Source: Psammoneis japonica
Taxonomy: Eukaryota
Direction of reading: 5' to 3'
DNA length: 64,000 bases
NCBI GenBank assembly: GCA_008632985.1
Contig: QPGO01000133.1
Span: 62,001 to 126,000, forward strand
Below the pieces are notes generated by a model. It searched no databases. It was given only the letters and a program-made list of their open reading frames with translations, and was not told the DNA's origin. How positions within the stretch are numbered: the first letter of the stretch is position 1; each line of letters begins with the position of its first letter. Position numbers and translations under genes: made by a program. This document shows positions 501 through 52,637 of the stretch, piece after piece.

Positions 501-1684
501 AATGCTTGACATTGGCGGCCTTCGAGATCTCTTGTGTCATTGAAGGATTTGATGTGCTGCGTTGGATCATCGGTCAACCATGGTGGGTCCGGCTTGGATG
601 CAGCGACGTGAGATGGACCTGTCGTGGTCTGGTGAGAGAACATGGCTGCTCCACCGAAACCACTCGTAAAGGTTGCTGTTGTCGTGCGTGACAGGTTGGT
701 TGCGATGCAAGAGAGCGTCGGCGCTTGACCACAAGCTCGCAACATTTCGGAAGAGGCAAGTGTCTTGATCAAATGGAGCTGTTCTAAAGGATCAATGCCT
801 TGAACAAATTCGTCTAACGAACAACCGCACTGCATGTCGCACATGATCCAGGTTTGGTGTAACAGTCGGTGCTTGATGCGGTAGAACTCTTCTAGTTCGA
901 AAGCTTCAGGGTCGTCTGGAGGTGCAAAAGGTGAGGGCTCCGTTCGTGTCGCGGAGCTACGAGGTTTGGTCCTCAGGTGGTCACCTGGAGGATCAAGCAA
1001 AGTGACGAAATCAGTTAAAGTCGCACCATGAGGAAACTCGTACATCTCGGAAGGTAGATGCAACAGGCGATGTTTGATTTGAGAATGGGCTTCTGCGGCC
1101 TCTTGTTGAGGATCGACGCAGGCAAATCTGGGTGGTCTCGTTTTCCCAGGTTTGAATCGACATCTCGATCTTGAGAGTTTCCACGACTTGGATTTTCGAC
1201 AGGAGCGATCCGGATCGGCTGCCGTTGTGTTGTCCGGAACAGGAGTTCGGCGCTGTTTGCGCCAAGTCGTTGGATGAAGGAAGGACCACAAGGGGTCTCT
1301 GCGTGGGATTCGAACTGGGTGCCGATCCAAGTGGCGAACCTGAGAATGATGTGTGATCCGAGTTCGATCAGGAGGACGACGAAATGAGGTCGGTTCGACA
1401 GCAGGAACAACAGCAAAGTCGGGAAGATCGTCGTGTGAAAGCGAAGGATTCTTGGAAAAGAGAAGCAAGCAGAACAAACATCCACCTGCTAAAACAAACA
1501 GCAACTGACAAATCGACGAAACTGCTTCGATCCCTCCCTCTCCAAGAATCTGGAGAGTGAACCACAGGAGCAAAAAATGACCAACCGACAAATGAGCCTG
1601 GACATCCCTTCCAGGAGCGGACGGTTGGTTGAAAAGGCAAGAAGAGAGGGCCACACGCTCAGGAGAGGAGGCGTGCCCGAAGCT

Positions 1685-3169
1685 TCAGGTGAAGGAGGCG
1701 AAGAGGCCGGACACAGTTTCGACCATCTCCTTCTTGGCATTGGCAATGGCGAGGTCACGATCTGTGACGGGAGCGGAAGCCGGTGCCGGAGCGGGCGCAG
1801 CGGCCGGAGCGGGAGAAGGTGCAGCGGCAGGAGTGGAGGCAACGTTCCCCGTCTCAGTCACCGGGTGCCAGCGCTTGGTTTTGCAATGATGGCAATGATC
1901 CTTGCCATCAATGTTGCGGCGACTGTCATCACTCTTTTCGGCTTCAGTCGGTGGCTGCCATTTCTTGGGAATGGTCTTGGCAGAGGGACCGGAAGAGGAG
2001 GATCCCGAAGAGTTGTTCTTGCGTTGAGCTCGTTTCGTGTCAAAGAAGAGCTTCTTGTTGGCACGAACACGAGCGTCGTCGACCGGTGTCTTGCAGTCAC
2101 ACAAAGGATGAGGGCCGCCACAGTTAAAACAAGTGACGACTCCCGCAACGAACGAAGTTGCTTGTTTCTTGGCAGACACGCCGGACCACTTGTCGGAGGA
2201 GACAAGAGCGAGACACTCGCCTTTGGCAAAGAACAAAATGTCATCCACCGCAGCAGTCGGTGCTGCAGTCGTCGAGCCCGATTGCTTGAGTTTGGAGGTC
2301 TTGGAGTCCTTGGTGAGGTGCTCGAAGAGAGAATTGAACTCGGGAACACTCGACGTTTGAAAGACTTTGGTGAGATTCTCCAGAAAATCAGTGGGAATGA
2401 CAGACTGTCCTTTCTGATCCTGGAGATTAGCGAGGCGAGAACAGCCACCGCGAACAAGAGGTGCGACTTTGCTTGCATCTTCTCCATCGAAGTCGGTGAT
2501 CTTGAGGTTGGTCATGTTGGAAACCAAACAACGAGCAGCCTCTTCGGAGTTGCTCTGAAGGAGTTTCATCATGAGAACGAAGAAAAGAGGTCCGCCCTGC
2601 TCTTCCTGATCACATTTGAGGTGCGTCTCGTTGACCTTCTTCTGCAGTGCAACGGACGCGTTCCGCTCGAAGCAGTCGTGAGCAAGACGAAGGTTTTGGC
2701 TCGCCCAAGTCCCACCGGGGTCCTCGAGCATGGTTGAGTGCCATTTGTTGCTTGCGGCGACCTCCGCTGCGGTGATCGTGGAGCATTCCTTGCAAAGATC
2801 ACGCGTCGTGAATTTATCTGGGTCGATGATGGTGAAGACGTCATCCATGTCACACTTGACATGGTTCGAACGCATGGTTGAAATGGACATCGCGAGGTCA
2901 CAAGCATCCTCGAGCTTGTCAGGATCGTTGATGTTGACGTTGAGGAGGTCAAATTTTGTCTGCTGTTTTGAAGTCGCCTTCAGAAAGAGATCGTTGAGCT
3001 TGTCAGGATCCAGCCTGTTCCTCTGCGCCTCAGTGTAGAGGGCAGTGAGAGTGTCTTGCGACGCTTTCGGCGTTGCGCGGACTTTCACCTTCCGTCCATC
3101 AATGGTCACCTCGGACATGCTGGCTGGCGGAGAAGGAGGGAGTGGAATGCTCGCTGCTTTGCTCGGCAT
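1685..3169 (-). pseudogene. Copia gag-like protein with zinc knuckle
   Basis: 494-aa ORF with CFNCGGPHPLCDC knuckle and EQGGPLFF motif. Only one Tyr in the whole ORF. Confidence 0.8.
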
Positions 3170-3642
3170 GCGAATTGCGCGAGAAAGTGCAGATTCTTCG
3201 GATGACGGTTAGTTGAATTGTCGCTGTCCGTGCGGATGTGTGCGCGTTGTTCTGCAATGCGAAAGACAGTTGCTTGACGGTCTTGGACAGCAACAGAGCG
3301 TCGAAAGTTCCGGATTTCGTCAGTTATGACGACTCGGTCGCCCACACGAAAATCCGCGATGGTCAGCTCCCGTGTGGTTGAAGTAGAAGTGCGAGCGGCT
3401 CCGGCTCACGTTGGCGCAGTGAGGCGATTCTGCCGTTCTCTTTCTGCGGCAATGCGACGAACAAGCTCCACTTCTTGAAGTTGCAGGGCTTGTAGTTGTT
3501 CAATGAGGTCGTCAAGTGTCGCAGAGTTCCTTTCGGACATGTGCAACACTCACGTAGAATTGTACGTAAAGAATGTACGGAGCTCACTTCTCGTCCACCG
3601 GAGAGAAAGAGATGAGCGCAGGAGTGATCAAGCGTGATGCTT

Positions 3643-7432: not shown

Positions 7433-9120
7433 CTCCCCCCCACACACACACATCATGAGAGAGGATCCCTCCTCATTTTCCCACACTGTGGGTGACTGTG
7501 CCACCAGGTTTGTTGGCACCTCACAAGGCAACATGGGTTGTGGAGTGGACCATTTGGTTGCGAAAGCACTGCAGCAAGCAAAGATTCCTGATTTTGTGCA
7601 CTGTCATCCTCGTGACACTCTTCAGATGATGAAACTGGAAATGTTGACAAAGCTGCTTCCCTCGTCACATCTCAAATTGCTGTCCACCAGTTTCACATCC
7701 AGTGTTGCCAATCTTCCACCAGCTGTTGATGCAATGTTGTGCACCCATCCCACACACATGAACGGCATCAACAATGCCCACTCTTTTGTTCTAGAAGGAA
7801 AGTGGGCCATGTGTCCTGACTTTCCGACACCTGTCGGAGAAGATGAAAGCAATCACACCAAATTGTTGAATGTCCACTCAATCCAACAGAAGCATCAATC
7901 GCAGGTTGATGCCACCCATTTTGTGTGGGCCGATGATGCCAACCCTTTCAAACAATTGAATCTGGCATCAATGCTCGCTGGAGTTGTGACAATTGCACCT
8001 GTTCATGCCAGGTCACAGACTGATGACAATTCCTTCTTGTTTTCTCTCAGCAACAAGAAGGCAGATCACCAGCCAATGTGGGGTTGTTTTCGCCAAGAGT
8101 GTCATCAACTGTCCAACCCAAGCAATGAATGGACATCATTTTTGCCATCACAAGACAGGAGCCATGGCTCAAGTTGCATTCTTTTGGAACTTCTTGCCGC
8201 AATGCAAGATTGTCCCAAATGATGCTCACACCTTCACCCAGCTGCCGCCAACTCCACCGTTGCGTGCTGCTGGATGTGCATTTTCAACTCAAAGCAGTGT
8301 TGGTCTGCCCTGGATGCATTCCAGCTCCAAGTGGGACCTCGCACTGCTGCACTGTGACATCAAGAGTTTTTTGGATCGTGCCACATGTTGCACATGCAGA
8401 TGGCTGCATGTGAAATTCTGCGAAATTGTTTCAGCCATGCTCCCCATTTTGTGAAGCCAAAGGATTTCTGTTTTCAACATTTGTGAGAATGAAAATGCAG
8501 TGGGCATGTTCTTTGATGTCTGGAGAACACACCCGGGCAAAGTGTCAATGATGTGCTTCAAGTGTGAAGGAGGAGTTGCGTTCGTAAAATTGCCTCTTTT
8601 TCTGTTGGCAATCATTCACATTTTCATTGCTCAACAAATTTGCTGCAGAGCTCGCACGCAGAATTCTACGGGCCCAATGTCACACAGAGTCCCACCTGGG
8701 GCTAGAACCCATCCCCCTGACAAGCTGCAAATGTGTTTCCAGAAGAGGCCAGATGGATGGTGTTTGTGTGGACTGGAACATGGATGGCCCCGGGAAAGCA
8801 CTTCTTGATTGCAAGGCATCATCTTCCTGTCCTTCATCTGCAGCTTTGGACCCAAATGACCCACACCTGTCTGTTTGCCAGCAAAATTTTGAGCTGCTGC
8901 AGGGGGCCTCTGAGATTGTCAAGGAGTCACATGCATCTGGAGTGTGGACCAAATCCACTGCCAAAGAGTTCTTGAAGGGCTGTTCCCACAGCTGTGAAGA
9001 GATGGATTGCCTTGTGCAATTCATTGATTTGGATGGGACAGGTGAATCCCATCAAATCCCAGTGCAGTGGGACATGGGCATTGGCATTTTTCCTGAGCAC
9101 AGAGTCAAAGAGCTCATGCA
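7401..9120 (+). pseudogene. Possible decayed DNA-transposon ORF (CACTA/Plavaka-like), interrupted by a MITE
   Basis: Weak motif resemblance only (FVWADDANP, LLAAMQDCP). Tyr-free ORFs lie on both sides of the MITE at 8313. Confidence 0.3.
8313..8713 (+). mobile_element. MITE family A copy, eroded
   Basis: Imperfect TIRs GATGCATTCCAGCTCCAAGTGGGAC ... GTCCCACCTGGGGCTAGAACCCATC. Interior resembles the copies at 15183, 16545 and 31029. No clean TSD. Confidence 0.8.
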
Positions 9121-9668
9121 GAGCGGAAGGTGTGGGAGACATGAGGGGCAGCAGGAGGCATCGAAGTGGCTGCTGAATCAGAGAGAGATGATGGCAAAGG
9201 TGTGTGGGAGAGAAAGAGATGGCAAAGGGTGGCGGGACCACAGCAACGTCAGGAGCACCAAAAGAGTTCTCAAGGCAGTGGTCAATGCACAGAAGAAATT
9301 TGTCAAAGGAAAGCAGGGAGGCAGGAACCTGATGGACAAAAGGAGCGGGGAGTTCAAGGACAGCCACTTCACAGTCACAGAGGCGCTTGCAAATGGAGTC
9401 AGCAAGGGCTGGGGATGGTGTGCAAATTCTTGGATCAACGGCACAAGCAAGTGCCAGGAAGGGAAAGAACAATGGGTTGAAAGTGGTGCCAAGCTTGTGA
9501 AGGAAGCAGTGGACCCAGGGAGGTCAGGAAAATGATGGGAGTCTTTTGGGAGAGCAGGGGGGGACCAAGGGATCAAAAAGAGGAAAGGCAAAATGGGGCG
9601 GCAGTGGAAGGATCACAATCGGAGCAGGAAGAAGATTCAGATGGGCAGCAAGCAGAGGTGTGGGGTGG

Positions 9669-10102
9669 TGTGCAGTGTGCCTCGCCACTGGACAACACGG
9701 CGAGACCGTGCATGAGCCTCTTGTGCGTGGCAACGCAGTGTTGTTGACACGCACCTGGGAAGCACGACCACAGGAGGGCGTGGCTCTAGGTCTCAGGCAA
9801 TTCCAGAAGGATGCTAAGAGAGCATCCGTGTGAAGCACACTGGCCCGTCGTCTGGCCCACGATGGTGGCGTGATTCCACACGATGACATCACTCGTGCAC
9901 AGTGCGTGATGGCTTGATTCGCACGATCCACAATGTGAGTGCACGATCGATTTGATGCAATCCAAATGTGAACGAACAGGGATTTGGCAAGATTCCCCAT
10001 TCACACGATCCCACTTTCTCCACTCTAAACTAGCTCACAATTTTCACAACGACAAAGTCGCAACACATCTTCTTTTTCAGTGCCTGGCACACACACAGGG
10101 CA
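9669..10102 (+). repeat. Gypsy 5' LTR
   Basis: Direct repeat of 13787-14218. Confidence 0.85.
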
Positions 10103-11789
10103 CAGCGACATTGCTCCCGCACGAAACTGCGAAATGTTGGCAGGACCGACAAATCTCAAAACGACCATGAAGAAGCGGATTGAGCCGCCGATTCCGTTTG
10201 CACGGCCGGAGAAGAAAGAGCCACAGCAGGGCGAGTGCCAGACGTTCAAACTGCGCAACAACCCCACTGATCCGGACAGTCCAATGCACGAGATGGGCAT
10301 TCCGTGCCTTTCTGCGGTTGCATGCGAGACACTCCCAATCTTTCTGCGCAACGTGGACCGTGTGCACGAAGGACAAAACATGACCACCGGGCCAGCAAAA
10401 TTTGCCCTTGTGCGTGACCTGCTGCAGGGCGATGCTCTGACGTCATTCAATGATGCCGCTGACAAGCAGGCATCCCAAACCAACGCTGCGTGCGCAGCAT
10501 GCGTCGCGAAGCTAAAGGAAAGCATCTTCCCACATGGGGCGGCACCATTGCAGAAGCGTCATCTGAGGCGCTTCATGCGCAAGCCCGCAGAGGTTTCCAC
10601 TCGTGACTGCATCGCGAGGGCTGTTGAAATCAACGGCCGCATCTCTCAGTTTCCACCCGTGACGGAGGATGGAGAAGCACCGGCACCATTGCCTGATGAC
10701 GAACTGTGCGACATGTTCGAGTGCGGTGTGCCGAACGCATGGCAGAAGTTCATGACGCTACAAAATTTTGACCCGTTGGCGCACACTGTCACCGAATTTG
10801 CACAGTTCTGCGAGCGCATCGAGCAGGTCGAGCTTGCCGAAGGCAACCTGGACCAACACACTGGGGTTCCACGTAAGCAGGGATGTAGAACAGACAATCC
10901 TGAGTCGTTGATCACGACCCAACCGAACACCCGCGTGAAACGTGTCAAGACTGGACATTCCAGCAACGGAGGCAGCAAGCCCAATGCAAAACCTCGGAAT
11001 GAGGAAGACATTGATGCTCTCATCAGATCGAAGGTCGAGGAGTTCTTTGCCAACGCTCAGAAAAAGCGCAAGGCACGCGAGGAGGAGCTCAATCACTTCC
11101 GCGACCTCAACTTAAGTGATTCCGAAGATTCGGACACTTGCCGACACGATGCAGGCAGTTTTAATGCATTGGATGAATGCATCAATGAACAACTGAATTA
11201 CCATCGTACACGTGTTGCAGGCCAATCCCGCAAACGAGTTAAAAAGACTCATCTTGCTCCAATCTTGTTCACAGCTATGAATGCTAAACATGGCAAGGGC
11301 AAGACTCAAACCATTAAGGCACTGCTAGATAGTGGCGCCAGCAGTGCTCTACTCGACAGTCGATACTGTAAACGTCTGCGAAGCCATTCAACGGCTGAGA
11401 CAAAATGGACTACGGTAGCAGGCTCGTTCAGTACGTCTAACGACTGTACCGTTAAATTTTGGTTACCAGAATTATCCGAAACTGCAGAACTTAAACATAC
11501 CGTCCACGTACACAACGGAAAGTTGGGCAAGTACGATATGATTATTGGACGTGACATTCTGGAGACACAAGGCATTGATATTGTCTTCTCTAAACAGATG
11601 ATAGAGTGGCCATTAGTCAATGGAGAAGTACCAATGAGGCACGTAGATGCTACGGTAGAAACCTCCTTCTATCTTCAAGATCCAGAAGCCTTATCTTCAG
11701 AAACCGACCGGATTTCGCGTATTTTAGACGCTAAGTACGCGCCGGCCTGCCTCAAAGACATAACGCGAGAGGCAATAGACTTTCTATAG
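10080..11789 (+). pseudogene. Gypsy gag plus aspartic protease
   Basis: TFKLRNNP...GQNMTTGPAKFALVRDLLQGDAL gag motifs; ALLDSGAS and YDMIIGRDIL protease motifs. Confidence 0.85.
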
Positions 11790-11806
11790 TTCAACAAAAC
11801 GACCTT

Positions 11807-13504
11807 TTGGCACTATTGAAACGCCATCAGTCCTTATTTGATGGGACATTAGGAGAATGGAAGGGAGAACCCTATCATATCCAACTCAAGGAGGGTGTAG
11901 AACCATACCACGCTCGTCCGTATAAAGTACCTCGTGCGTACGAAGCTACGCTACGTAAAGAAGTAGAACGCCTAGCACGTGTCGGTGTTCCCAAACGCGT
12001 TAACCGATCCCAATGGGCAGCTCCATCATTTATCATGCCGAAGAAAGATTTAACGGTGCGCTTTGTTAATGATTTCAGAGAGCTGAATAAACGGATCAAG
12101 CGATTGCCTTGTCCGATTCCTCACATCCAAGATGTGCCACTTGAGCTCGAAGGCTTCATGTGGGCTGCATCACTGGACTCAAATGTGGGCCATTGTCATG
12201 TCCGATTGGATGCTGATGGCAAGAAGCTCTGCACGCTCATCTTCCCGTGGGGCAAGCATGAGATGCAGGCATTGCCCATGGGATCACGCAACTTGCCAGA
12301 CATTTTCCAAGAACGCATGTCAGGCTCATTTGAAGATCTGTCGTTCGTTCGAATGCACTCAGATGACCTTCTCGTCGTGACGAAAGGCACCCATGAAGAT
12401 CACCTCAACAAACTTGAAGAAGTTTCATTGAGGGTCCAGAAAGCAGGACTAAAAGTTGACGCAACTAAATCTCACTTCTGTCAAACCCAATTAGAGTGCT
12501 TGGGTCATCTGGTCAACAGAGACGGAGTGCGACCAACACCTGACAAAGTCGACGCCATTGGGCGAATCGCGACCCCAGCCAATGAACGCGACCTGCGCTC
12601 ATTTGTTGGCATGGTGAACTGCCACCGTGACACGTGGATCAGATGTTCTGAAGTCTTGGCTCTGCTGACACGACTGGCAAGCGAGACTGTTGAGTGGGAG
12701 TGGACGTCCGTTGAAGACGAGGCGTTCGAAACCGTCAAACGGGTGACATCGGATGATGTTTCATTGTCACATCCTGATTTTAATGAACCCTTTGAGACAC
12801 ATGCCGATGCCTCTAAATGTCAATTGGGAGCAGTTTTGTCCCAAGACAATGAACCTGTCGCCTTTCACAGCAGAAAGCTCAACAGTGCGCAATTAAATTG
12901 TGCAACAACGGAGAGAGAATTGCTCACCATTGTGGAGACGTTGAAAGAATTTCGAACGATTCTCCTTGGTCATCGTGCAATTGTGTGTGCTGATCATAAA
13001 AATCTCATGTGCAAAGCACTCAATGCCGAGCGCGTTGTGCGCTGGCGGTCAACATGCGAAGAATGCGGTCCCAAATTACGTCATGTTAAGGGCACCCACA
13101 ACCTGGTCGCTGACGCTCTTGGTCGCCTTCGGCCAGCACCCAGCTTGCCTTCCGAGGCCAATCCGGATGTAAAAGACACTCCATTGAGTCGTCCTTTGCA
13201 TGAAGCTTTTAGTGCAGATGCTCAAGATGAGGCATCTCTGCCTGTTAGCTTCAAGCGCATTCAAAAAGCACAACAAAAGGACAAGCGCCTGCTCTCACGA
13301 GCTGAGGACTCGCCCGACTGCTCCATTCGCGCGTGTCGTGGGGGAGGGTCATCACGACAGTCAATCTGTCATAAGGACAAAATCGCAGCACCACAGTCAT
13401 TGCAGGTTCCGCCAACTGAATGGCGCCACGAGACACTGTGTCACCCAGGTGAGACACATGCGGAAACATCTGTTGCCCAGCACTTCTGCTGGCCTGGCAT
13501 GTAG
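11807..13504 (+). pseudogene. Gypsy RT, RNase H and integrase zinc-binding start, inactivated
   Basis: DFRELNKRI, FPWGK, LPMG, MHSDD (in place of YxDD), ADASKCQLGAV, AFHSRKL, ELLTIVETLKEFR, ADHKNL, NLVADAL, WRHETLCHPG. Confidence 0.92.
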
Positions 13505-13786
13505 AAACCAGAAAGCAGAAGCTTGTCCACTTAAACAACAAGCGTGAAAATCAGAAATGCAAGGAGCATCAATGTGCCGCAGGGCAATTGGCACTTGTCA
13601 AACAGGAGCAATCCTCTAAATGCGGTTCTGACAGCTGTGCAGGACCCGCCAGAGTTGTCCGTGTGTGTGACGACGGCACGTTGCGCACCCAGAACGGAGC
13701 GCTGACAGATGCGTGCAATCTACGGCAGATTGCACCCCATCACCAGTGAGACATCCTGTCACTTAACGGCCCTGATCATGGGGGAG

Positions 13787-14218
13787 TGTGCAGCATGCCT
13801 CGATGCTGGACAACACGGTGAGACCGTGCACAAGCCTCTTGTGCGTGGCAACGCAGCATTGTCAACACGTGCCTGGGAAGCACGACCACAGGAGGGCGTG
13901 GCTCTGGGTCAAGCAATTCCAGAAGGATGCCAAGAGAGCATCCGTGTGAAGCACACTGGCCTGTCGTCTGGCCCACGATGGTGGCGTGATTCCACACGAT
14001 GACATCACTCGTGCACAGCGCGTGATGGCTTGATTCGCACGATCCACAATGCGAACGCACGATCGATTTGATGCGATCCAAATGCGAACGAATGGGGATT
14101 TGGCAAGATTCCCCATTCGCACGATCCCACTTTCTCTGCTCCAAACCAGCTTGTGATTTTCACAATGACAAAGTCGCAACACATCTTCTTTTTCAGCGCC
14201 TGGTGCATGCATGGGGCA
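13787..14218 (+). repeat. Gypsy 3' LTR
   Basis: Direct repeat of 9669-10102, preceded by GGGGGAG. Confidence 0.85.
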
Positions 14219-14382
14219 GGTGTGATGCCAGGAGAAGTCTGGCAAATTGATGTCGGAGAGACACCGATGCAGTGGAGGCAGAGGCAAGAGATGCAGTGAG
14301 TCTTGGGGGAACGCCAGGTCTGGGCAGAGTCGAAGAGTGGGGTGTGGGAATGGACGGCAGAGAGAAGGCAGGAGTGCAGTGT

Positions 14383-14812
14383 GCATGCAGACAAAAGGTT
14401 GTTTTTGTCACGCCCTTTGTGACATTTAAAGGCTGTGACACGTCGCCGTGATGCATTGACTCTTGTTGGCAGCTGCATGTTGCACTCCTCCCCATGCATC
14501 ACGCGCAGAACTAACGTGTGCTGACACTGCACATTTTTGGCAGAACAGTGTGGGTGCGCACGAAGGAACACACAGAACTGCACAGAGTTTTGCGCGTTCG
14601 ACAGTGATCAACGTTGCTGCAGACAACTCCCGCTCAGGGTTTCGAACCCCTGGCCTCCTGCCTGATGGTTGCGCATTGAACCACTCCGCCATGAATTCAC
14701 AACGCAGCATGCATGCAGACAAAAGGTTGTTTTTGTCATGCCCTTTGTGACATTTAAAGGCTGTGACACGTCGCCATGATGCATTGACTCTTGTTGGCAG
14801 CTGCATGTTGCA
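14383..14812. repeat. ~100-bp direct repeat, copies ~328 bp apart
   Basis: GCATGCAGACAAAAGGTTGTTTTTGTCA...GGCAGCTGCATGTTGCA at ~14383 and ~14711. Confidence 0.85.
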
Positions 14813-15182: not shown

Positions 15183-15499
15183 GATGCTTTCCAGCTCTGG
15201 GTGGGACCTCGCACTGCTGCACTGTGACATCAAGAGTTTTTTGGATTGCATCACATGTTGCCAAAGGCTCTCCATTTTCAACATTTGTGAGAATGAAAAT
15301 GTGCCAGGTGCACTCTTTAATGTCTGTAGAACACGGGAGGCACTTCAAGTGTGAAGGAGGAGACACATTCGCAAAATTGCCTTTTTTCTGTTGGCGATCA
15401 TTCACATTTTCGTTGCTCAATGAATTTGCTGTGGAGCTTGCACGCAGAATTTCATGGGCCCAATGTCACATGGAGCCCCGCCTGGGGCTGGAACCCATC
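15183..15499 (+). mobile_element. MITE family A copy, internally deleted, TSD TTTG
   Basis: TIRs GATGCTTTCCAGCTCTGGGTGGGAC / CCGCCTGGGGCTGGAACCCATC; TTTG on both sides. Confidence 0.85.
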
Positions 15500-16196
15500 T
15501 TTGGCCCTGTGAACTCCATTTGCATGTTGCACTCACCTGCTCTTTGCACATGGCGTTCCATTTTGTTTTCATGCACATCTTGTCCAAATGGCATCCCCAA
15601 CACCAATGAATGCTGAGAAGCCAATCCGGCAGTGATTCTTGAGATTGGAGATGAGGACAATCCTGCTCAAGTCCATGATGAGGATGAATGGGCTCTTGCG
15701 GGACACCATTTTTGTTGGTTTTGATTTGCAAACCACAGCGAATCCTGACTCCATGGCACACATCTCATCACCCACTGTCAATCCACGCAAAATTGCCTTT
15801 TTTCTGTTGGCGATCATTCACATTTTTGTTGCTCAATGAATTTGCTGTGGAGCTTGCACGCAGAATTTCATGGGCCCAATGTCACATGGAGTCCCGCCTG
15901 GGGCTGGAACCCATCTTTGGCCCTGCGAACTCCATTTGCATGTTGCACTCACCCACTCTTTGCACATGGCGTTCCATTTTGTTTTCATGCACATCTTGTC
16001 CAAATGGCATCCCCGACACCAATGGATGCTGAGAAGCCAATCCGGCAGTGATTCTTGAGATTAGAGATGAGGACAATCCTGCTCAAGTCCATGATGAGGA
16101 TGAATGGGCTCTTGCGGGACACCATTTTTGTTGGTTTTGATTTGCAAACCGCAGCGAATCCCGACTCCATGGCACACATCTCATCACCCACTGTCA
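15370..16196. repeat. Tandem duplication, ~416-bp unit including the MITE 3' end
   Basis: CGCAAAATTGCCTTTTTTCTGTTGG...TCATCACCCACTGTCA at ~15370-15780 and ~15786-16196, near identical. Confidence 0.9.
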
Positions 16197-16544
16197 GTCC
16201 ACCAACTCCGGCACCCACCCCAGACGCTGGCATTGCAACACTGTCAACGCCTCTTTGGTTGGGTCAATGACATTCAAGTTGGCAGGATGCTCACCCAGTC
16301 TTCCTTTTGTTTTGTTGCACTCTTCTGCAATCATCACAGCCTTTTTTGGTTTCCTGGGGGTTGACCCATGTTTCTTCTAGATGACATGGGGAGCTGAGTT
16401 GAAGCCGCAGAGGACTGTCATGGCAGAATTTTGACTTGCGAAGATCATTTGGAAGGAACCATCAGGTGCAAACACAGCACTCGGTGATGTCATTTGCACA
16501 TTTGTTGTTGCTGTTGTTGAAAAAGACCTCTGTGGGGCTGTTCA

Positions 16545-17240
16545 GATGTGCTCCAGCTCTGGGTGGGACCTTGCACTGCTGAGCTGTGACATGGTTGTTT
16601 TTTGTCATCCATCACATGTTTTGCGCACACATTTCTGCGTGTTCTGTTACAAAAAAATGTTCCACACTTCCTGTTTTGCAAAGCCAAAGGCTTTCTGTCA
16701 TCTGCACTCAAGACAACAAAAATGTGCTGGGTGCATTCTTTAATGTCTGAAGAACACACCCGGATGTGCTGCAAAGAATGTGCTTCAAGTGTGGAGGAGG
16801 AGATGTGTTCGCAAAGAAGTTGCCTTTTTTTCTGTTGGCGATCATTGGTGCATTTGTTGCTTGACAAAATTGCTGCAAAGCTTGCACGAAGATGGGCTCC
16901 AGCCCCAGGTGGGACTTTTTGTGACATTGGGCCTGCAGAATTCTGCATGCGAGCTCTGCAGCAAAATCATCAAGCAATGGACACATGAATGATCGCCAAC
17001 AGAAAAAGAGGCAATTTTGCCAGCGCATTTCCTCCTCCACACTTGAAACACATTCTTTGCAGCATGCCCAGGCACACTCTTCAGACATTGAAGAACACAC
17101 CCAGTGCATTTTTGTTGTCACAAGCGCAGATGACAGAAAGCCTTTGGCTTCGCAAAACAGGCAGCGTGGAACAATTTTTTGCAGCGGAACACGCAGAAAT
17201 GTTCAGCAGTGCGAGGTCCCACCCAGAGCTGGAGCGCGTC
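16545..17240. mobile_element. Composite inverted dimer of MITE family A, TSD TTCA
   Basis: Forward 3'-truncated copy 16545-16890 abuts a reverse copy 16891-17240. TTCA at 16541-16544 and 17241-17244. Confidence 0.8.
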
Positions 17241-18677: not shown

Positions 18678-21126
18678 TCACAGGGAAGTGTCCTCTTTCT
18701 TTCGACTCTCGAGCCTCCCATTCTTGACCCCCCTTCTCAAAATGCAGGTACGCAAAATGTATGCAGAACACGAATATCTCCATACAGCAACTTACCAATC
18801 GCGACTGTTTATCTGGAACTCCAAAATGTCATGGTTGTCGCCTCTTCTTGTACCGGTCGCGCTGGTGAAGCCGACGAAGACCTCACGCCCCCTTGGGAAT
18901 AACGCGCGCAAATTATACCGGTCTCTGAGAATGGGATTGGAAGGCTTGTATTCATGTTGCCAACGATCGTGATAGACAGACAAAATCGATCCATCGTAGT
19001 CTACCCAGAGGCCTCCTACAGCTTCGCCTGACGTGCGAACTGGATGGTAGCCGGAATCGGCCTTCGAGGCATATCCACCAGCGACACCGAGTTCCATGAT
19101 TTGTATGTGATCCGGACTTTGTCATCCCCATAGGGATCATTATCTGAGGTAAGAAAGATCCGGGATGAGAACATCCAAAAATATGACAGCTGAAGGAGAT
19201 CAACAAAGATTTTAAATCTTACACCAGGGCACTTACCTGTATCTAGCTCAACCACGAGCGCAGGCCGAGGTCCTCCTCCGTAGTAGACACCAAGTCCATC
19301 ACCGGGATAACCAATTCCCAAAGTGCCATTCCTGCCCTGATGCATAGTGAATGTCATTCCCTCGCCTGACCCAGCGTTGTCACCATACATGCGGTAGGCC
19401 ATTTTCATCTCGAAGAAGAAATCGTTCCGATACATTGTCAGCGGAAGGAACGCGGAAGCGGCACTATGACTTCCTCGATCAGGAGTGAGACATATTGCGC
19501 AACAGTTCCAGCAACGAAGATTTTTGATGTGGGGATGATGGGGGTCATTTTCTAAAGAATACCCATTGAGTTCAAAATTCGGAAGATCATCACAATGGCC
19601 TTTCCAATCATACCCGTAAACTCCCTGATGTACCCGTATGCAGCCACCAGGGTCCGTGAGCGTCACAGATCCAGTGCACGTGTCGGTTAGACCACACTGA
19701 GTCTCAGCGGTGAGAGTAACACGGGTTGTGCCAATTTCATAAGGACCCCAGGGTACCTGATTTATCCGAAAGAGAGGAATACCGCTTTCATCGTATGACC
19801 CGTTGTCAATCGACACCCACCTACGATTGCACGCGGGTGGGCGCCTGGCTTTCATGGTCACATGCTTGCAACGTGGTACAGGTTTGCTGCACCTCGGCGT
19901 CTGGGGTATGCAGCCACCGGGGTCCGTGAGCGTCACATATCCAGTGCACGTGTCGGTTAAACCACACTGAGTCTCAGCGGTGAGTGTAACACGGGTTGTA
20001 CCAATCTCATAAGGACCCCCGGGTACCTGTTTTGTCCGAAAGAGAGGAATACGGGTTTCATCGTATGACCCGTTGTCAATCGACACCGACCTACGATTGC
20101 ACGCGGGTGGGCCATCGGCGTCCATTGTCACATCCTTGCAACGTGGTACAGGTTTGCTGCACCTCTGTGTCTGGGGTATGCAGCCACCGGGGTCCGTGAG
20201 CGTCACATCTCCAGTGCACGTGTCGGTTTCACCACACTCATTCTCAACGGTGAGAGTCACACGGGTCGTACCAATTTCATAAGGACCCCCGGGTACCTGA
20301 TCTTTCCGAACGAGAGAACCGCGTTGATCGTATGACCCGTTGTCAATCGACACCCGCCTACGATTGCACGCGGGTGGGCCATCGGCGTCCATGGTCACAT
20401 CCTTACAACGTGCTTCAGGTTTGGGGCACCTCGGCGTCTGGTGCGGGCCGGGTGGGCAGCCACCGGGGTCCGTGATCGTCACATATCCAGTGCACGTGTC
20501 GTTTAAACCACACTCACTCCCAGCGGTGAGAGTCACACGGGTCGTACCAATTTCATAAGGACCCCCGGGTACCTGATCTAACAGAAAGAGAGGAATACGG
20601 CTTTTATCGTATGACCCGTTGTCAATCGACACCCGCCTACGATTGCACGCGGGTGGGCCATCGGCGTCCATGGTCACATCTTCCTTGCAAACTGCTACAG
20701 GTATGGTGCACCGCGTCACCCCGTCAGTTCCGCCTTCCGGATCGACATCCTCGGGGTCCTCGCCTTCGGGATCCACGGGTGGAGCCTGTTTTTCCTTGAG
20801 ATGGAACGCGAACAGAGAAACACAGAAAAAAACAGTGATTTGAGATGATTCATGAGTGGACCGGACTGCCGAAGCACCTGTGTTTCATTGTCAGACCATG
20901 GAAGAGACTTACCTCGACGGGTGAAGCAGCGGAGTTGTCCTTATCCGTGTCTTTATGGCATTGGTATTTGCATTCGTGTGCGAAATGCGAAGTTGCGAAC
21001 AGCAATGTGTCAGCAGGAACGAGGGGATGAAATTCACCGACTCTCCAGATTACAGTGATGCGTTTCCTCACCTTGAGCGTGCGCAGAGAGGACAAGAGAG
21101 GCTATAAGGAAGGTATCAAATCGCAT
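18678..21126 (-). CDS. Secreted protein with four HYR-like Cys-rich repeats and an L-type (legume/ConA-like) lectin domain; multi-exon
   Basis: Signal peptide MRFDTFLIASLVLSAHAQ followed by a GTGAG donor. Four ~90-aa units (VSIDNGSYD...PGGPYEIGTTRVTLT...DTCTG.VTLTD). Lectin motifs LTPD, GEGMTF, GDGLG, VVELDT, WVDYDG, VFVGFTSATG, HDIL. The 3' end and some exon borders are approximate. Confidence 0.75.
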
Positions 21127-29520: not shown

Positions 29521-31028
29521 TGTCATTTTTTGGGGTGTCAAAAATCAAAAAATCCAAAATGCTGCACTCTTTGTCAGTCGTGGTGGTGGCGGATGATGGC
29601 ACAGGAAGCTTCATGGATCAAGGCTTTCATTGGCATGTGAATGAGGTGCTGCATTGTGTGTGAGACACAAGAGCAGTGAATTGAAAGCACTTTGAGACAA
29701 ACTGCAATCGTTGGTGATGAACAAGACAAAATCATCCTTTGGTTGGCAATGCCATGTCTCCTTCACCAACATGCTGCCAACTTGAGGGATGAATGATGAA
29801 ATTTGCTTTTGGCAAAGATGAGCACATTAAAAAAATTTGGCAAATTTGCTGCACGCACAAAAAATTTTGTGGTGCATGCGACAAATTTGTTGCACATCCG
29901 ACAAACACCAACAAACGCCAACACCATTGTGCAACAAACACCGCACGACAAATGCCAACAAAAGCAGGCGAAAGCAGACAAACATGGGACAAACATGTTT
30001 TGCCAAACCACGCACGTGCTTGTGCAGCAGGGCCCTTCAGACACAGCCTCATCTTTGGAGCTGTGCACAACAATGCCGGCTCCATCCAGATGACCGCAGA
30101 CCTCAACAAACAAAAGGGGCAAGACATGCAATGGCATGTTTGAATCCATCATTTTATGATGGCAATTGTCGATCAATCATGACACATGATTGAATGTCAT
30201 CTGCAGCCTGAAAGACAAGGTGAAATGTGGCAGCTTGTGTGCAGAACACTTGTGCAACAGATCGGTTGTCAAAAAGTGATGCTGTTCTTGTGTCATGTCA
30301 TCACAAGTGCAAATCACAAGGTGACCAGAGTGATGGCCAAGGCAAAAGCAGAACCTTGTGTGGCTGACAAAAATGTGGCAGATTGAACAGCCATGTTGTT
30401 TCCTCCCTTCGTCGCATCTTGTGTGCAGAATGCAGCGGATTGCACTGTCATGCTTTTGTCATGTGGTCTTAAAATGCACGCCATGAGGCATCCACAGCAA
30501 AGGCCAAGGCTGCAGTGGAGCCGTGTTTAACTGACATTGACATGGAGAATTTAATGGAAAAACTCATTCCTCCTCATTCCACCAGAAGGGGCCGCATCAC
30601 GTCGTTGTGTCAATGCGCCATCATCGCGCACAAGAGACAACATGTCAGCCAAGACCAGAGGCTCAGTTGCGCACCGTGGGTGTGTTTTGGTGAGTTGCGC
30701 CGACAAATTTTATTTGTCGCAGAAAGTTTTGGCTGTGACAAAGATCGCCAAATTTTGTCAAATGCAACACTCAATGAAAGGACATTGCCAAAGCACATGT
30801 TGTGCATGAATGACATTGAACACCTCATCTCTGAATTTTGCAATGTGTTTTTGTCCTGTTTGTTGTGAACAATTTCAGTTTGTCTCAATTGCATCTTTTC
30901 AAGACAAAACACAAATCCATTTAAGAAAATGTTGCCAAGTGCCACAAAATGCCGTGTGTCCCAGGGATGCAATGACACAAGGGATGCACCATTGCAACAA
31001 ATCCATGCCATCAAACTGCAAAGCTGTT

Positions 31029-31424
31029 GACGCGTTCCAGCCCTAGGTGGGAGCTCGTAGCACTGACGTGTGACAACAATAATTTTTATCATCCGTCGTA
31101 TGTTTCGTACGTAGATTTCTACGTGTGATATTTAAAAAAAATTGTCCAGACTCGCTGTTTTGCGAAGCCCCAGACGTTTTATATAACAAATTTATAGAAA
31201 CAATAATGCGCCAGTTACATTCTTCAATGTCTGAAGAATGTAACTGGCTAAGTAAAAAATGATGTACTTCAATCATGTGCGAGTTTGTGCGTTCGCAAAA
31301 TTGCCTCATTTTCTGTTGGCGATCATTGACATTTTAATTACCGTATAATTTTACTACGGAGCTCGCACGTAGAAGTCTACGGGCCCAATGTCACACGGAT
31401 TCCCACCTGCGTCTGGAACGCGTC
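31029..31424 (+). mobile_element. MITE family A copy, well preserved, TSD TGTT
   Basis: TIR GACGCGTTCCAG-N4-AGGTGGGA at both ends; TGTT on both sides; TA-rich interior. Confidence 0.92.
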
Positions 31425-31565
31425 TGTTGCCTTTCACCGCAACCACAAATCAGCCAAAAAAGTTGCACCCCAGGAACAAAACAAGTGGAGGGAAACAGTG
31501 GATCTGGATTGGTGGCAAAAACCGCAGCAAGCTGAGAGAAGAAGACAAAGAACAAGACGAAAGGG

Positions 31566-33437: not shown

Positions 33438-34815
33438 TCATAGTTCCTGCTCCCTATGTATCTTTGCCATGAGCTTCAAATCACTGTGATCCAAGCTTCC
33501 GTTCCCCGTCGCATCTAACCTATCAAACTGTTCATGCAACTCTTGCAACTGCTTTGGCTCCACCAATTGCAATTCAACCAACATAAATTCCACATACTCG
33601 TCCTTGGTGACCGTACCATCCCCATTGGAATCCATTTTATTCAAATAGTCCGTCGTTAGTGCTCCCGCCGTGCACGTTGTGCCTCCAACAATCGACTTCG
33701 ACGTTGTTGCAATGAAAAGGATGCAATATAACTCAACACTTGTCCCACCGTGGCAACCGCCATGGGTATATACAAGAGTGCAAACAAGCGTCCCCGGCGT
33801 GTCGACGGAGAAAAATCACCATAGCCAACCGTCCCTGACGTAATAATGGAATAGTAAATGGAGTCGATCCAAGACCACTTTTCTAAATGACCCATGTAGA
33901 GACCGCCCATGAACAGAACCGAAATGGGTGGAACAAGCGTTTTGGCAATGTTGCGAATCTGAGAAAACCGAGACGAAATTGTCTGTTTTGTACTACTTGT
34001 CGCCTTCGTTTTCTTGTCACTTGCTTCCATTATACCAGCAGTCTCATTATTATGGCTTGAGTATTTTGTAGAATTCACGAGATGATTCATTTTGTCAAAC
34101 AGGTCAACGATACGTTTCCGACTACGGTCTTGTGCAGCCTCCATGGCGTGTACTTCGGATTGCAACAAGTCACTTCCAATTCTCGCCAGAGCCGTTCCCA
34201 AAAAGCTAATGCCACCCAAACCAAAGAGACACGTAAACACCTTGGCTTTGGTCGACAATGGACTCGCCAAATCGCCATATCCACCGTGGTGAACGTTGTC
34301 ACACTAAAATACAAGGCATCCAGACAGGACCAGTGGGATTCGAGCAAGACCGAATACGCCACTACGCCCACTAGCAGATACAACACAATTCCCAACAGGG
34401 CATCTCGAGCCGTTGTCATGGGCATGGATGGTGTAGTGTCATCGGTATTGTTGTGACTGATTTTTGTAAAGATTCGTTTTGCGGCAGGAAAGTAGGGCAG
34501 CGAAATGCCCCTCCATAAGTTTCGAAGAAATCGTGATGTGAAGACTTGCAACTTGTTTCTTGGCGAGGCATTGTTCTTGTTTGTAGCACAGAGCAATGTA
34601 GAGATTGAGCGCTCTTGAATGCTACTTATGCTGTGACCTTGATTTTTATGATACAACGAGTTGCCGTTGACGCTTCTTTTTGACGAGTAAGTCGAGTGAA
34701 ATGCCATCATCAGCGGTTGATGAATTGAGCTTGCCACGTTCAACGCGTTGACTTGAACCATTAACCAAGATACAAGGATTAGCAAGGAGATTCGTTGTGT
34801 TATAGCACTACTCAT
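33438..34815 (-). CDS. Two-pore-domain K+ channel (TPK/KCO-like) with two C-terminal EF hands; two 1-nt frameshifts in this sequence
   Basis: Pore 1 DALYFSVTTFTTV-GYGDL (restored across a shift at ~34280), pore 2 DSIYYSIITSGTVGYGDF, EF hands DSNGDGTVTKDE and DATGNGSLDHSD. Second shift at ~33660. Confidence 0.85.
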
Positions 34816-35029
34816 ATCGTCTCTGTAAGTGTGGTTCTCTCAGCGGCTCCTATTCTCAGTTCATTGTCTCTTTTCTGTGCCGGTATCTTTCGTCCGGTAT
34901 CTTTGTGCAAAAAGATATCTTTCTCGTTCTCGTACGAGACAGGCGAGGAGACTGTACCAGTAGATTTGTAGCTCAAAAATGCAACACATGGTTCTCCACA
35001 AGTATGACTTTATAGTATCGCAAGTGAAT

Positions 35030-37192
35030 CTATAGCAAATGAGACAGCTGCTGCTGTCCATCTTGGTGGCCTCTGATTAATCTTGATTCGTTGGCAGGTT
35101 CGGAACCGTCGCCTCTGCTGCCCAAGGCAATGCCTCGACCCTCAAATGGACCCATGCTAGAAGACTGACCTCTAGAAGAAACCAACCTAAAGAGATTCCG
35201 ACCAAGGACCTTGGCGTGGTCCAAGATTGTCCACCCAAAAACAGCAGCAAAAATGCCACCGCCTCCGGTTTCATCCAAATCGTACACGTGCTTTATTACC
35301 AAGCAAGTTGCCAGCAGCTGAATCAAGATTCGAAACATCCACAAACACAGGACCATTGCCCAAGTGGCCGTGTCGTGCCAAAAAAAGATGCTCCTCGTGG
35401 ACCAAACAGCCAACCAACCGGATAACGTCATGGAATCGGTAATGATCAGTACAATAGACGTCACCACATAGCCCTTGTAAAGGGTATTTAATCGATCCGT
35501 CTCGTCAGTTTGTTGCTTGCCGCTGCCACTCTTGACTGTCGTGCACCAGTCTTTGTGACGACCCACAGCACACCAAAACAACAGTGTCACCAAACAATAC
35601 GACAAGGCGATGCTTCTGCTTTTAAAATGCCACATACCCGCAACTCCAATGAATGCCATGGCGTTCCGCACGTAGAGTAAGGTTGAATGAAAAAGCTCGT
35701 CATCATTGTGTTCATGTCGTCGCCCTAACCTAATGCCGCCCCATCGATTGTCGGATTGCTCAGCTAGTTCTTCATCATCATGGTGGCCAGGTAGTAGTCT
35801 CTCAATGGGCGCGGGTAGTTTGAAAAGCGGCGGACTCCGTCCAAAGGAATAGTGCAGTACCAAAATAAAGGGCAACAATACCGCGGGTTGTATATACTCG
35901 AGCGGCAAGAACTTCCAATGCAACAAGAATCCAATAATAATTCCCGACAAGTGTCCCAAAAAGGAGACACGCTTCATGATGAATTGTGCCACAATCAATT
36001 GAATCAGGGGACTTAAGTTGAATTTCAAACCCCAAAACAAACTATAGGTTTCAAAACAAACGTCTGGAAACATGGGTATCGGACACGTTGCATCCGTTCG
36101 TTCCAAACACGAAACCACCATCCATGCAAACAAAATTCCGGAATAACCCACGGTGCTCGTGTGACGGTGTTCGTGATTCGATTCATATCGAATTCGAGCA
36201 TACACCAACATTAAAAAGACACATGTCGTCAGAGGAATGAGTGAAACATTGTACAAGAGAAATTCAATGCTTGGATAAACACCAAAATTTTCCAATTCTT
36301 GTCCAAGACTGTACAGACTCATCATGTTGAAGGCGATATGCAAGGCATCAAAATGAGCCGTGGCACCGGAAAAACTTCTCCACAATTCGTGGTTATTCAG
36401 AATTTTGCAATACACCTTGGCAACACTGCTGGGATGGACGTGACAATTCCAATACACGACAGCCAACCCAATGTTGAGTGCCAAGAGCAAGACGGTTGCA
36501 GGATGTCTCAAGAAAAAATCCAACGATTGATTTCTTTTTCTATAATTGCTCGAGAGTTTGTTGGGATTTTTCCGGACACCCTCCAGAATATTGGCTTTTT
36601 CTTCTTGTTGTTGCGCTCTTGTTGTATCGGTTTCCGGCAGCAATCGAGTAGTTGCCGTAGTAGTAAACCGCGACTTTAGAAACGACGATGACTTTTCTCG
36701 CTCAAAACAAAAGACCTCGAGAAACTCGTCAGTGTCGATTCGTTTCCAGTTACCACTGGTCGGGTACAACAGATTGCTATTACTTTCCGCAGATGAACAC
36801 GCAATCATGTTCTCATTTTCGTCCACAACACACCACGTTTTGTTCTTGTATATAATTTTTTGATTTCTATTACTGTCGTCGTTTTGTTGCGGTGGATGCC
36901 AATATTGTCTTTGAGCCGACTGTTTGAGAGCACTTGCGACTTGTACAATCGACGGCCATGCGGCGTTATTTCCTGATGATGATGATTCGAGCACATCGTG
37001 GTCATTTACATTCATAAAAGGATTCCGTACATAGGCACCTTGAAAAGCCTTTTCCTTTATCCAACATGTCGGTACATATAGTATGCTTGTCGAGTGAATG
37101 TAGTATCGTAAATGAGCAAAGGTCAAGAGAACTGGAAGTACCACGGTGAAGAATGCCAAACAACATGCCGCCTTTACAACTTGTATTGGCAT
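35030..37192 (-). CDS. Rhomboid-family intramembrane serine protease
   Basis: 720-aa ORF with ELWR, HIAFNMMSL, catalytic GYSG and GHLSG motifs and several TM segments. Confidence 0.9.
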   Translation of the reverse strand: MPIQVVKAACCLAFFTVVLPVLLTFAHLRYYIHSTSILYVPTCWIKEKAFQGAYVRNPFMNVNDHDVLESSSSGNNAAWPSIVQVASALKQSAQRQYWHPPQQNDDSNRNQKIIYKNKTWCVVDENENMIACSSAESNSNLLYPTSGNWKRIDTDEFLEVFCFEREKSSSFLKSRFTTTATTRLLPETDTTRAQQQEEKANILEGVRKNPNKLSSNYRKRNQSLDFFLRHPATVLLLALNIGLAVVYWNCHVHPSSVAKVYCKILNNHELWRSFSGATAHFDALHIAFNMMSLYSLGQELENFGVYPSIEFLLYNVSLIPLTTCVFLMLVYARIRYESNHEHRHTSTVGYSGILFAWMVVSCLERTDATCPIPMFPDVCFETYSLFWGLKFNLSPLIQLIVAQFIMKRVSFLGHLSGIIIGFLLHWKFLPLEYIQPAVLLPFILVLHYSFGRSPPLFKLPAPIERLLPGHHDDEELAEQSDNRWGGIRLGRRHEHNDDELFHSTLLYVRNAMAFIGVAGMWHFKSRSIALSYCLVTLLFWCAVGRHKDWCTTVKSGSGKQQTDETDRLNTLYKGYVVTSIVLIITDSMTLSGWLAVWSTRSIFFWHDTATWAMVLCLWMFRILIQLLATCLVIKHVYDLDETGGGGIFAAVFGWTILDHAKVLGRNLFRLVSSRGQSSSMGPFEGRGIALGSRGDGSEPANESRLIRGHQDGQQQLSHLL

Positions 37193-37652
37193 TTTTGTGT
37201 GTGTGTGTGTGTGTGTAATTCAATAATCAGAATGTCTACTTCTTTGTTTCCTTACGCTGCCGGTAGCTTAAATAAAAGAGATATCGGTGTCAACACACAA
37301 TAGCAGCTGTTGCCCCGCATCATGGTGTGAACGCTGTTATGAACGCACCGCGATCCGCGAGTCGTGATTCGTGATTGACTGCCCAATCGTGCCCGCTTGT
37401 CATCGTTGATCGAAGGTTTGATGATTGTGACAGATGATCCCAATATCGTGTGAGACAAAAGGTCGAATAATGCCCAAGAGAAAAACCCTCTATAGTCGAG
37501 TTGGTTATAATTTGAATATACTATGAAATCTTGTTTATCTGTTAGATTAGCATCTAAAGTACAGAAGAGCAATGAGCCAAGTCTGCGTGGTGCGTCAACT
37601 AACCAACCACGACATGGCCGCCTTGAACAACATAGGCCTACAATAACGATGT

Positions 37653-44399: not shown

Positions 44400-44790
44400 G
44401 ACGCGTTCCAGCCCCAGGGTGGGACTCCGTGTGACATTGGGCCCGTAGAATTCTACGTGCGAGCTCCGTAGTACGAGAATTTAATCAATGGATATATTTG
44501 TCTTCAACATCAAATAAACGGCCAAGTTTGTGGTACAATTATGCCTCTTACCACTCGACGTTTTTGCAAATGCGCCTGCCCTACGCGATTCTTATGACAT
44601 TATAGAATCGCGCTGTAACAAAAAATGTCAAAAGTTGTTGGACGGATCGCTCAATAAGTGTACCGTAAAATGACACAAAATGTCGAAAAAATCACGTAGA
44701 AATCTACGTGCGCGACATACGACGTGATTCAAAAAACTGTCGATGTCACAGTTCAGCAGTGCGAGGTCCCACCTAGACCTGGAACGCGTC
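44400..44790 (-). mobile_element. MITE family A copy, well preserved, TSD AGAC
   Basis: GACGCGTTCCAG...GGTGGGAC TIRs; AGAC at 44396-44399 and 44791-44794; TA-rich interior. Confidence 0.92.
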
Positions 44791-52563: not shown

Positions 52564-52637
52564 GACTGAAAGTCAAGAGTCTGCAAAGGAAATGATTTTT
52601 GACTGAAAGTCAAGAGTCTGCAAAGGAAATGATTTTG
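52564..52637. repeat. 37-bp tandem duplication
   Basis: GACTGAAAGTCAAGAGTCTGCAAAGGAAATGATTTT twice. Confidence 0.9.

Follow-up and report, generated by a model that had tools for sequence, protein, structure and literature searches.

A Ty3/Gypsy long terminal repeat (LTR) retrotransposon in Psammoneis japonica appears to have lost nearly all of its TpA dinucleotides (TA) by mutation on both strands of the integrated DNA. The element lies at 9661/9669-14218 of a 64,000-nucleotide stretch (contig QPGO01000133.1, positions 62,001 to 126,000; hereafter the window, to which all positions refer) and has no integrase core. We consider it probable that this chromosomal copy was the target of post-integration, TpA-specific A:T>G:C hypermutation, which ran close to saturation and spared genes. 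At the level of sequence comparison, the polarity of the change, its specificity for TpA, its action on both strands, its independence in each copy, and the sparing of genes were demonstrated. By analogy, the most likely agent would be an enzyme that deaminates adenine in 5'-TA-3' DNA, with a preference for a 5'-T and with the resulting inosine pairing with C.

Under this model, the copy would integrate and its chromosomal DNA would then undergo TpA-specific A:T>G:C hypermutation. Since TpA is palindromic, top-strand hits would leave TpG and bottom-strand hits would leave CpA. Each LTR would be hit independently and almost to saturation. Former TA sites would now be seen as TA/TG or TA/CA pairs, opposite-strand hits on both copies would give CA/TG swaps, and concordant hits in both LTRs would leave no visible difference. 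Ordinary CpG decay would proceed in parallel, more slowly. The outcome would be a targeted erosion of foreign DNA resembling repeat-induced point mutation (RIP), with mobile and intergenic DNA hit and host genes spared.

The LTRs of one element are identical at insertion. Here, their alignment spanned 442 columns, with 2 gap columns and 45 mismatches in the 440 ungapped columns. The mismatches resolved into 13 adjacent CA/TG swaps (26 columns), 10 sites with CG in one LTR and TG or CA in the other, 4 sites with TA, always in the 5' LTR, against TG or CA, 3 other transitions, and 2 transversions. Hence, 17 of the 32 difference events were TA-type or swaps, and CpG decay formed a separate, additional component. 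The 5' LTR TA at 9787-88 aligned with the 3' LTR TG at 13905-06, while those at 9815-16, 10026-27, and 10031-32 aligned with CA at 13931-32, 14142-43, and 14147-48, respectively; every coordinate given for these sites in the original prediction was correct. The same prediction described many of the remaining differences as swaps between CA and TG, as between CACACACACA (10088-10097, 5' LTR) and TGCATGCATG (14204-14213, 3' LTR). This description held: 45 mismatches placed at random gave a mean of 4.1 adjacent pairs and a maximum of 12, with at least 13 in 0 of 20,000 trials. Two host sulfotransferase paralogues (2000 bp, 86% identical) served as a negative control and showed 6 swaps among about 200 differences, the others being 8 TA-type, 37 CG-type, 59 other transitions, and 93 transversions. 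Swaps are thus not general to diverged duplicates in the window.

Both products occurred in each LTR, and the two LTRs together held 14 TG and 16 CA. At the swap sites, the 5' LTR read CA at 9 and TG at 4. The LTRs were discordant at 17 sites, with the products mixed within each LTR, which agrees with the earlier claim that the pattern is unlike strand-biased RNA editing. From 9977 onward, all seven swaps read CA in the 5' LTR, which is a weak hint only of a strand-coordinated cluster.

The direction of change was read from the protein. The pol frame was aligned with the best 120 of 497 database homologues (47-59% identity), a Tyr column being one with Tyr in at least 60% of the homologues and a conserved column one that was at least 80% conserved. 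Past nucleotide 12100, none of the 17 Tyr columns kept Tyr; they now encode 8 His (CAY), 6 Cys (TGY), 1 Trp, 1 Met, and 1 Arg (CGC). Before nucleotide 12100, 2 of 3 Tyr columns kept Tyr. The depleted parts of gag and pol encode no Tyr at all. In the depleted part of pol, 67 of 248 conserved columns had changed, of which 19 fitted one TpA>TpG step, 14 one TpA>CpA step, and 6 one step of CpG decay (CpG>TpG/CpA); 5 were other transitions, 8 were transversions, and 15 needed more than one step. The same permissive rule applied to control contexts found 1 for ApA, 2 for CpA, 1 for GpA, 0 for CpA>TpA (RIP type), 0 for CpC, and 1 for CpT, against 33 of 67 for TpA. Because conserved Tyr is gone, half of the changes fit TpA, and few fit other contexts, these codons identify the change as a loss of TA, not a gain, specific for TpA and acting on both strands, as had been predicted. 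The outcomes in pol were 21 TG and 14 CA with two tract-edge events included (binomial p = 0.31), and no kataegis-like strand runs were found in pol, where a hand count gave about 17 runs against 17.1 expected. Some conserved residues required two transitions and were counted as multi-step. Examples are the codon CGC at 13424, where Tyr gave way to Arg through TAC>CAC/TGC>CGC, and GCA at 12977, where Ile was replaced by Ala following a T; in such cases, a single TA step, or two that overlap, may have been hit twice.

Other copies of the family, taken as contigs from one public sample with three coded runs, were compared with the element. At the swap site 10021-22/14137-38, this copy has C at 10021 in the 5' LTR and the family has T in 25153 of 26329 depth units, giving TA. 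At the swap site 14154-55, this copy has G at 14155 and the family has A in 199 of 293. At the TA sites 14142 and 14147, this copy has C and the family has T in 11774 of 11826 and 102 of 216, respectively. At internal positions 10631, 12360, and 12458, this copy reads CA or TG, and almost every other contig has TA. CpG decay was visible in the same comparison, with T in this copy and C in 206 of 295 of the family at the CG/TG site 14166, and with 8 private sites reading TG or CA for CG. In the family-contig rows examined, no CG was seen at swap sites, and TA was the majority at both swap sites with rows; the original prediction had named CG at most swap sites as the result that would overturn it. 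Variation among the family copies consisted of transitions at 440 of 457 places. That the LTRs resolved the same sites differently, and that nearly all other family contigs kept TA at 10021, 14142, and the internal sites, bears out the claim of change per copy and after insertion.

The TA that remains in depleted DNA (n = 161) was biased to YTAR, with 40 TTAA, 43 TTAG/CTAA, and 11 CTAG, and three contexts were almost lost (0 ATAT, 2 GTAC, 5 ATAC/GTAT). Each of the four TA that the 5' LTR retains lies in CTAA or CTAG. TA survival fitted an additive per-flank model. Reading the flank 5' of T against that 3' of A in 35 polarized events gave 4 TG and 3 CA at TTAT sites. The survival of YTAR in these sequences suggests that the mutating agent prefers certain flanks.

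A second, short repeat family in the window replicates the LTR logic in its sequence, and here the window itself contains the outgroup, a TA-normal copy (31000-31440, 29 TA) inside depleted DNA. Four depleted copies (8300-8740, 15240-15510, and two arms of 16520-17215) hold 0-3 TA each. At the TA sites of the normal copy, the 99 ungapped cells in the depleted copies read TG in 39, CA in 23, CG in 3, TA in 1, and other letters in 33. The copies disagree between CA and TG at 9 sites, the same TA sites having been resolved independently. The locus at 16.5-17.2 kb is an inverted duplication of this family.

TA loss extended over most of the window. The ratio of observed to expected counts (O/E) across the 64 kb was 0.26 for TA, 0.61 for CG, 1.52 for CA, and 1.50 for TG; many 2-kb bins had a TA O/E of 0.01-0.05, and G+C stayed near 50%. 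At 200-bp resolution, 45,000 of 64,000 bp (about 70%) were TA-depleted with 0.1-0.9 TA per 100 bp, and the rest held 2.5-8.8. The result is a sharp mosaic of CA/TG-rich depleted DNA and TA-normal islands of 0.4-3 kb that match single-exon host genes. There were 176 stop-to-stop open reading frames (ORFs) of at least 110 codons in all six frames of the 64 kb. A Pfam scan of 144 of them gave matches for 8, which belong to the host genes of Table 1, all in TA-normal segments and mostly single exons, and 136 had no Pfam match. Since the loss of TA also removes the stop codons TAA and TAG, depleted DNA is full of long spurious open frames. At codon boundaries, where a T>C change is mostly silent, host genes kept TA at 0.44-0.63 of expectation, against 0.12-0.32 in depleted gag and pol, where codon positions 1-2 held 0 of 40.7 expected. 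Since codon-boundary TA is far better kept in host genes, these genes escape the process and are not merely rescued by selection. Tyr makes up 3.3-4.2% of residues in the spared tract of the element, described below, and in five host genes. Within the window, the process is confined to mobile and intergenic DNA, with host genes spared.

The window also allowed TA loss and CpG decay to be compared in rate. CpG depletion was strong in old background DNA (CG O/E 0.08-0.5) and absent from the element, so TA loss is the faster of the two. It appears that TA loss saturates first and CpG decay follows, which would make a possible relative clock. Among TA-depleted segments, 39201-44400 and 50201-61200 held 1.3-1.6 CG per 100 bp, and 1001-3400 and the element held 6-7. 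A further consequence concerns dating. The Jukes-Cantor distance between the LTRs was 0.110 from all sites and 0.0115 from the 5 other differences, or 0.007 if the first 8 LTR columns are flank. LTR-based ages are therefore overestimated about 10-15 fold, in keeping with the inflation that had been foreseen.

Several other explanations were weighed against post-integration hypermutation. Decay of methylated CpG on opposite strands could also produce swaps, with the TA against TG/CA pairs being second steps or chance. Such decay is real here, as seen in the 10 one-sided CG of the LTRs, the 6 CpG-type changes in pol, the 8 private sites, and the CG-poor background DNA, yet as the source of the swaps it is scarcely credible. 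With 22 CG shared by the LTRs and 10 one-sided, a CpG-only model gave 0.95 doubly decayed sites and 0.48 discordant ones, against 13 swaps seen (P for at least 13, 7e-15). CG density in the element is normal, family rows gave TA at swap sites, and the Tyr>His/Cys changes prove a TA origin for 14 CA/TG pairs in pol. The original prediction had allowed that some swaps could stem from ancestral CG, and CpG decay does account for 10 LTR differences. Under a TA model, the 13 swaps and the 4 TA still present point to about 30 ancestral sites, a density of 6.8 per 100 bp that matches the 6.3 per 100 bp of the spared tract. The TA O/E of 79 related metagenome elements (0.59-1.18, median 0.77) is in line with this model; these loci are other families with 48-61% protein identity and LTRs that cannot be aligned, so they inform baseline TA content only, and the pattern used in the scan included ...NMGY and was biased towards intact and against eroded copies. 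An untargeted, genome-wide bias from TpA to CpA or TpG, with selection keeping TA in genes, would explain why TA-normal segments coincide with host genes, as all 8 ORFs with Pfam matches did. We regard it as improbable in view of the codon-boundary TA in host genes, of an element near-saturated for TA loss while its other LTR differences amount to about 1%, and of the TA-normal repeat copy at 31000-31440 within depleted DNA.

Editing before integration, either of RNA or cDNA by ADAR- or APOBEC-like enzymes or through an eroded master copy, would deprive the LTR pair of its value as a timer. States common to both LTRs yet unlike the family could arise in this way, concordant conversions cannot be dated, and the spared tract could be a template switch between edited and unedited RNA. 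Such editing predicts the same change in both LTRs or a strand bias per LTR, whereas the 5' LTR swaps were 9 CA and 4 TG, the outcomes in pol were interleaved at 21:14, and nearly all other copies keep TA at 10021, 14142, 10631, 12360, and 12458; we consider it highly improbable. Much the same can be said of an artefact, be it an assembly join between separate copies of the family or the miscalling of modified bases in repeats. With a summed word depth of 10,000-45,000 against about 65 for a unique-flank contig, the family is high-copy, which makes a false join conceivable. A 475-nt contig of depth 65 matches 9400-9697 with 0 differences, however, and covers TA-free flank and the LTR start; about 53 depth units, or about single-copy depth, carry this copy's C at 14142; and the same signature recurs in the second repeat family and over 45 kb of the window, with a target-site duplication present. 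A different chemistry, in which thymine in TpA is modified (for example, in a hydroxymethyluracil-like manner) and mispairs or is misrepaired to C, is unlikely but deserves more weight than these. The products would be the same if T changed to C at TpA on either strand, and sequence cannot tell the two routes apart. Some protists modify T preferentially at TpA. The only paper found on this signature argues in its main text for adenine deamination from the 5'-U preference of ADAT/ADAR, which is also unproven (Mettrop et al., bioRxiv 10.64898/2026.01.13.699255).

A number of observations weigh against post-integration hypermutation as proposed here or narrow its support. Family-contig states were read at 40 of the 457 variable places, leaving 11 of 13 swap sites and 2 of 4 TA sites without a direct outgroup, and contigs were assigned to whichever LTR fitted best. 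At the swap site 10021-22/14137-38, the 3' LTR has G at 14138 and the family has A in only 4185 of 16817 depth units. At 14016-17, both LTRs read CA and 90% of the family depth reads TG; at 10014/14130, both LTRs read C and the family reads T. Because both LTRs share these states unlike the family, some differences are older than the insertion or characterize a subfamily. Run X1 contains only 49% of the words sampled from the element, and none of the listed contigs extends across the stretch, which leaves some room for a chimeric assembly. In the codon test, the ancestral codon was taken to be the synonymous one that most favours a single step, and other contexts, treated in the same way, served as its control. 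In addition, a TA-normal tract of about 1 kb within the element (Table 1) is unaccounted for by a simple whole-element process. Against the homologue consensus, 6 of 59 conserved columns differ in this tract, which has sharp borders and is in frame with the eroded parts. As the reading frame continues through, the tract is not a nested insertion. In 40 family-contig rows, the tract (0.99 kb) had 5 private non-TA differences and the rest of the interior (2.69 kb) had 18; this similar density, as a weak test, does not favour very recent conversion of the tract. The tract could stem from a process that acts patchily, from ectopic gene conversion by a copy that escaped editing, from template switching during reverse transcription, or from a join made in assembly.

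The features of the element and the host genes of the window are collected in Table 1.

Table 1. Features of the retrotransposon and TA-normal host genes in the window
Feature	Position	Strand	Remarks
Target-site duplication GGTG (candidate), copy 1	9657..9660	.	Direct reading of sequence
5' LTR	9661..10102	+	Homology from 9661; canonical TG start possibly 9669; end ...GGGCA; 4 TA kept, all CTAR
gag-protease open frame	10029..11786	+	586 codons, stop to stop; weak protease matches
TA-normal tract	11110..12100	+	4-10 TA per 100 bp against 0-3 elsewhere in the element; Tyr codons kept
pol open frame	11735..13501	+	589 codons; reverse transcriptase, RNase H, start of integrase zinc finger
Integrase C-terminal remnant	13498..13746	+	tblastn with six full-length homologues
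3' LTR	13779..14218	+	0 TA; 90.4% identity to 5' LTR over 427 bp
Purine run GGGGGAG	13780..13786	+	Possible polypurine tract if the LTR begins at 13787; read off the sequence, inferred
Target-site duplication GGTG (candidate), copy 2	14219..14222	.	Direct reading of sequence
HYR/lectin gene	19019-20884		TA-normal island
EF-hand two-pore channel gene	33441-34839		TA-normal island
Rhomboid gene	35033-37219		TA-normal island
FBPase gene	37656-38699		TA-normal island; nearest named homologues are diatoms, 79-84% identity
Sulfotransferase genes	48667-49797 and 61876-63405		TA-normal islands

LTR homology begins at 9661/13779, and both LTRs start with TG and end with CA. The end is confirmed by a contig with a loose end at 14218. 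The original prediction placed the LTR start at 9669; the purine run GGGGGAG fits this position, while homology already extends from 9661/13779. The purine run just before the 3' LTR copy suggests that the true start may be 9669/13787 (TGTGCAG). With a start at 9661, the candidate target-site duplication is GGTG/GGTG, identical in 4 of 4 letters; with a start at 9669, it is GGTGG (9664-9668) and GGTGT (14219-14223), identical in 4 of 5. In a contig from a diverged copy of the flank, 6 other letters separate 9658 from 14219 and the element is absent; this contig thus represents an empty paralogous flank.

In the gag-protease frame, aspartyl protease families matched at E values of 0.004-0.007, below the curated Pfam cut-offs, and tblastn of homologues covered 11268-11777. 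The Pfam matches in pol were all above the cut-offs (RVT_1 8.4e-12, RT_RNaseH_2 6.2e-26, RT_RNaseH 1.7e-22). Its homologues carry rve after the reverse transcriptase and RNase H domains. According to tblastn with six full-length homologues, the integrase catalytic core (about homologue residues 735-900) is deleted near 13500, and no second pol-like sequence was found elsewhere in the 64-kb window. Neither was a second copy of the element family found in the window, the only match being a 69%-identical LTR-like stretch at 46269-46459. This stretch is itself TA-depleted and so uninformative on TA against CG; at those swap sites that could be aligned, it has no CG. Just 3' of the element, at 14359-14500, lies a very high-copy repeat (summed word depth of about 155,000 in run X1), two copies of which, 14376-14484 and 14704-14812, are 96% identical and 328 bp apart. 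The two carbohydrate-sulfotransferase paralogues used as the control above (48353-50341 and 61996-63936) share their identity over 2 kb, lie 13.6 kb apart, and differ in an ordinary, transversion-rich manner.

The closest known system is Bigelowiella natans, where TpA-specific hypermutation of integrated giant-virus and virophage DNA is described in a preprint (Mettrop et al., bioRxiv 10.64898/2026.01.13.699255). According to its main text, 231 of 302 nuclear mutations in mutation-accumulation lines fell in two integrated viral regions, and 230 of these 231 were A>G or T>C, all at TpA. The raised rate of new mutation, followed in real time, appeared in some of the lines only. The nuclear genome has 6.0% TpA overall and 124 depleted clusters, and the TpA-poor, CpA+TpG-rich clusters are enriched in reverse-transcriptase and transposase domains. 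An ADAT2/3-like deaminase is proposed there as the agent. The main text contains no occurrence of 'LTR' or 'retrotransposon'. As far as the preprint describes it, that system shares with ours an almost exclusive A>G/T>C change at TpA, giving TpG or CpA by strand, in chromosomal foreign DNA with the standard genome spared. It differs in that B. natans is a chlorarachniophyte (Rhizaria) in which new mutations in two viral inserts were followed in culture, whereas the evidence here is historical and comes from an LTR pair and a protein outgroup. Here, moreover, the process strikes an LTR retrotransposon family and the bulk of the intergenic DNA (about 70% of the window), CpG depletion co-occurs, and the host genes suggest a diatom-like stramenopile. 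In the literature searched, the coverage of which is incomplete, no report of a TpA-loss signature in diatoms was found, and the B. natans preprint was the only match.

Other known processes resemble the present one in part. Fungal RIP in ascomycetes is likewise a transition hypermutation of chromosomal DNA that is repeated or mobile; it hits each copy separately and on both strands, spares single-copy genes, and inflates divergence ages. RIP changes C to T mostly at CpA, creating TpA and AT-rich DNA. Here, in contrast, TpA is destroyed: 0 of 67 changes fit CpA>TpA, the TA O/E of the window is low, and G+C is near 50%. Decay of CpG by methylation and deamination likewise ends in CA/TG and occurs in the element and window as well, but it cannot give Tyr>His/Cys, the TA against TG/CA pairs, or the number of swaps, and it is slower here. 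Editing of retroelements by APOBEC/ADAR before integration (e.g., Knisbacher and Levanon 2015, PMC4866542) likewise leaves deaminase footprints fossilized in LTR retrotransposons, and enzymes of the ADAR type prefer an A with U/T on its 5' side. Those edits are strand-biased, made on RNA or cDNA, and inherited by both LTRs, unlike the changes reported here, which affect both strands and differ between the LTRs.

Herein, our findings point to a second, independent, and much more extreme case of TpA hypermutation of mobile DNA, in a different major lineage, so that the phenomenon would not be one alga's curiosity. The LTR pair serves as a natural experiment that places the process after integration and reveals its action on both strands, copy by copy. 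In all six phases, eroded transposons retain long open frames, which is a trap for gene finders, and the Tyr>His/Cys changes in their proteins could mislead annotation and homology searches. The YTAR survivors, especially TTAA, offer a testable handle on the agent. We tentatively propose, as an idea with somewhat less than even chances, a transposon-directed DNA-editing defence in diatom-like algae that would be the mirror image of RIP. In it, TpA would be erased by adenine deamination on either strand of integrated copies, in discrete, sharp-bordered tracts (hence the 1-kb spared tract and spared young copies) and faster than CpG decay, until most non-genic DNA is rewritten into CA/TG-rich, stop-codon-poor sequence. 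If this is true, a process first seen in a chlorarachniophyte would be widespread in the stramenopile-alveolate-rhizarian (SAR) supergroup and a major shaper of these genomes.

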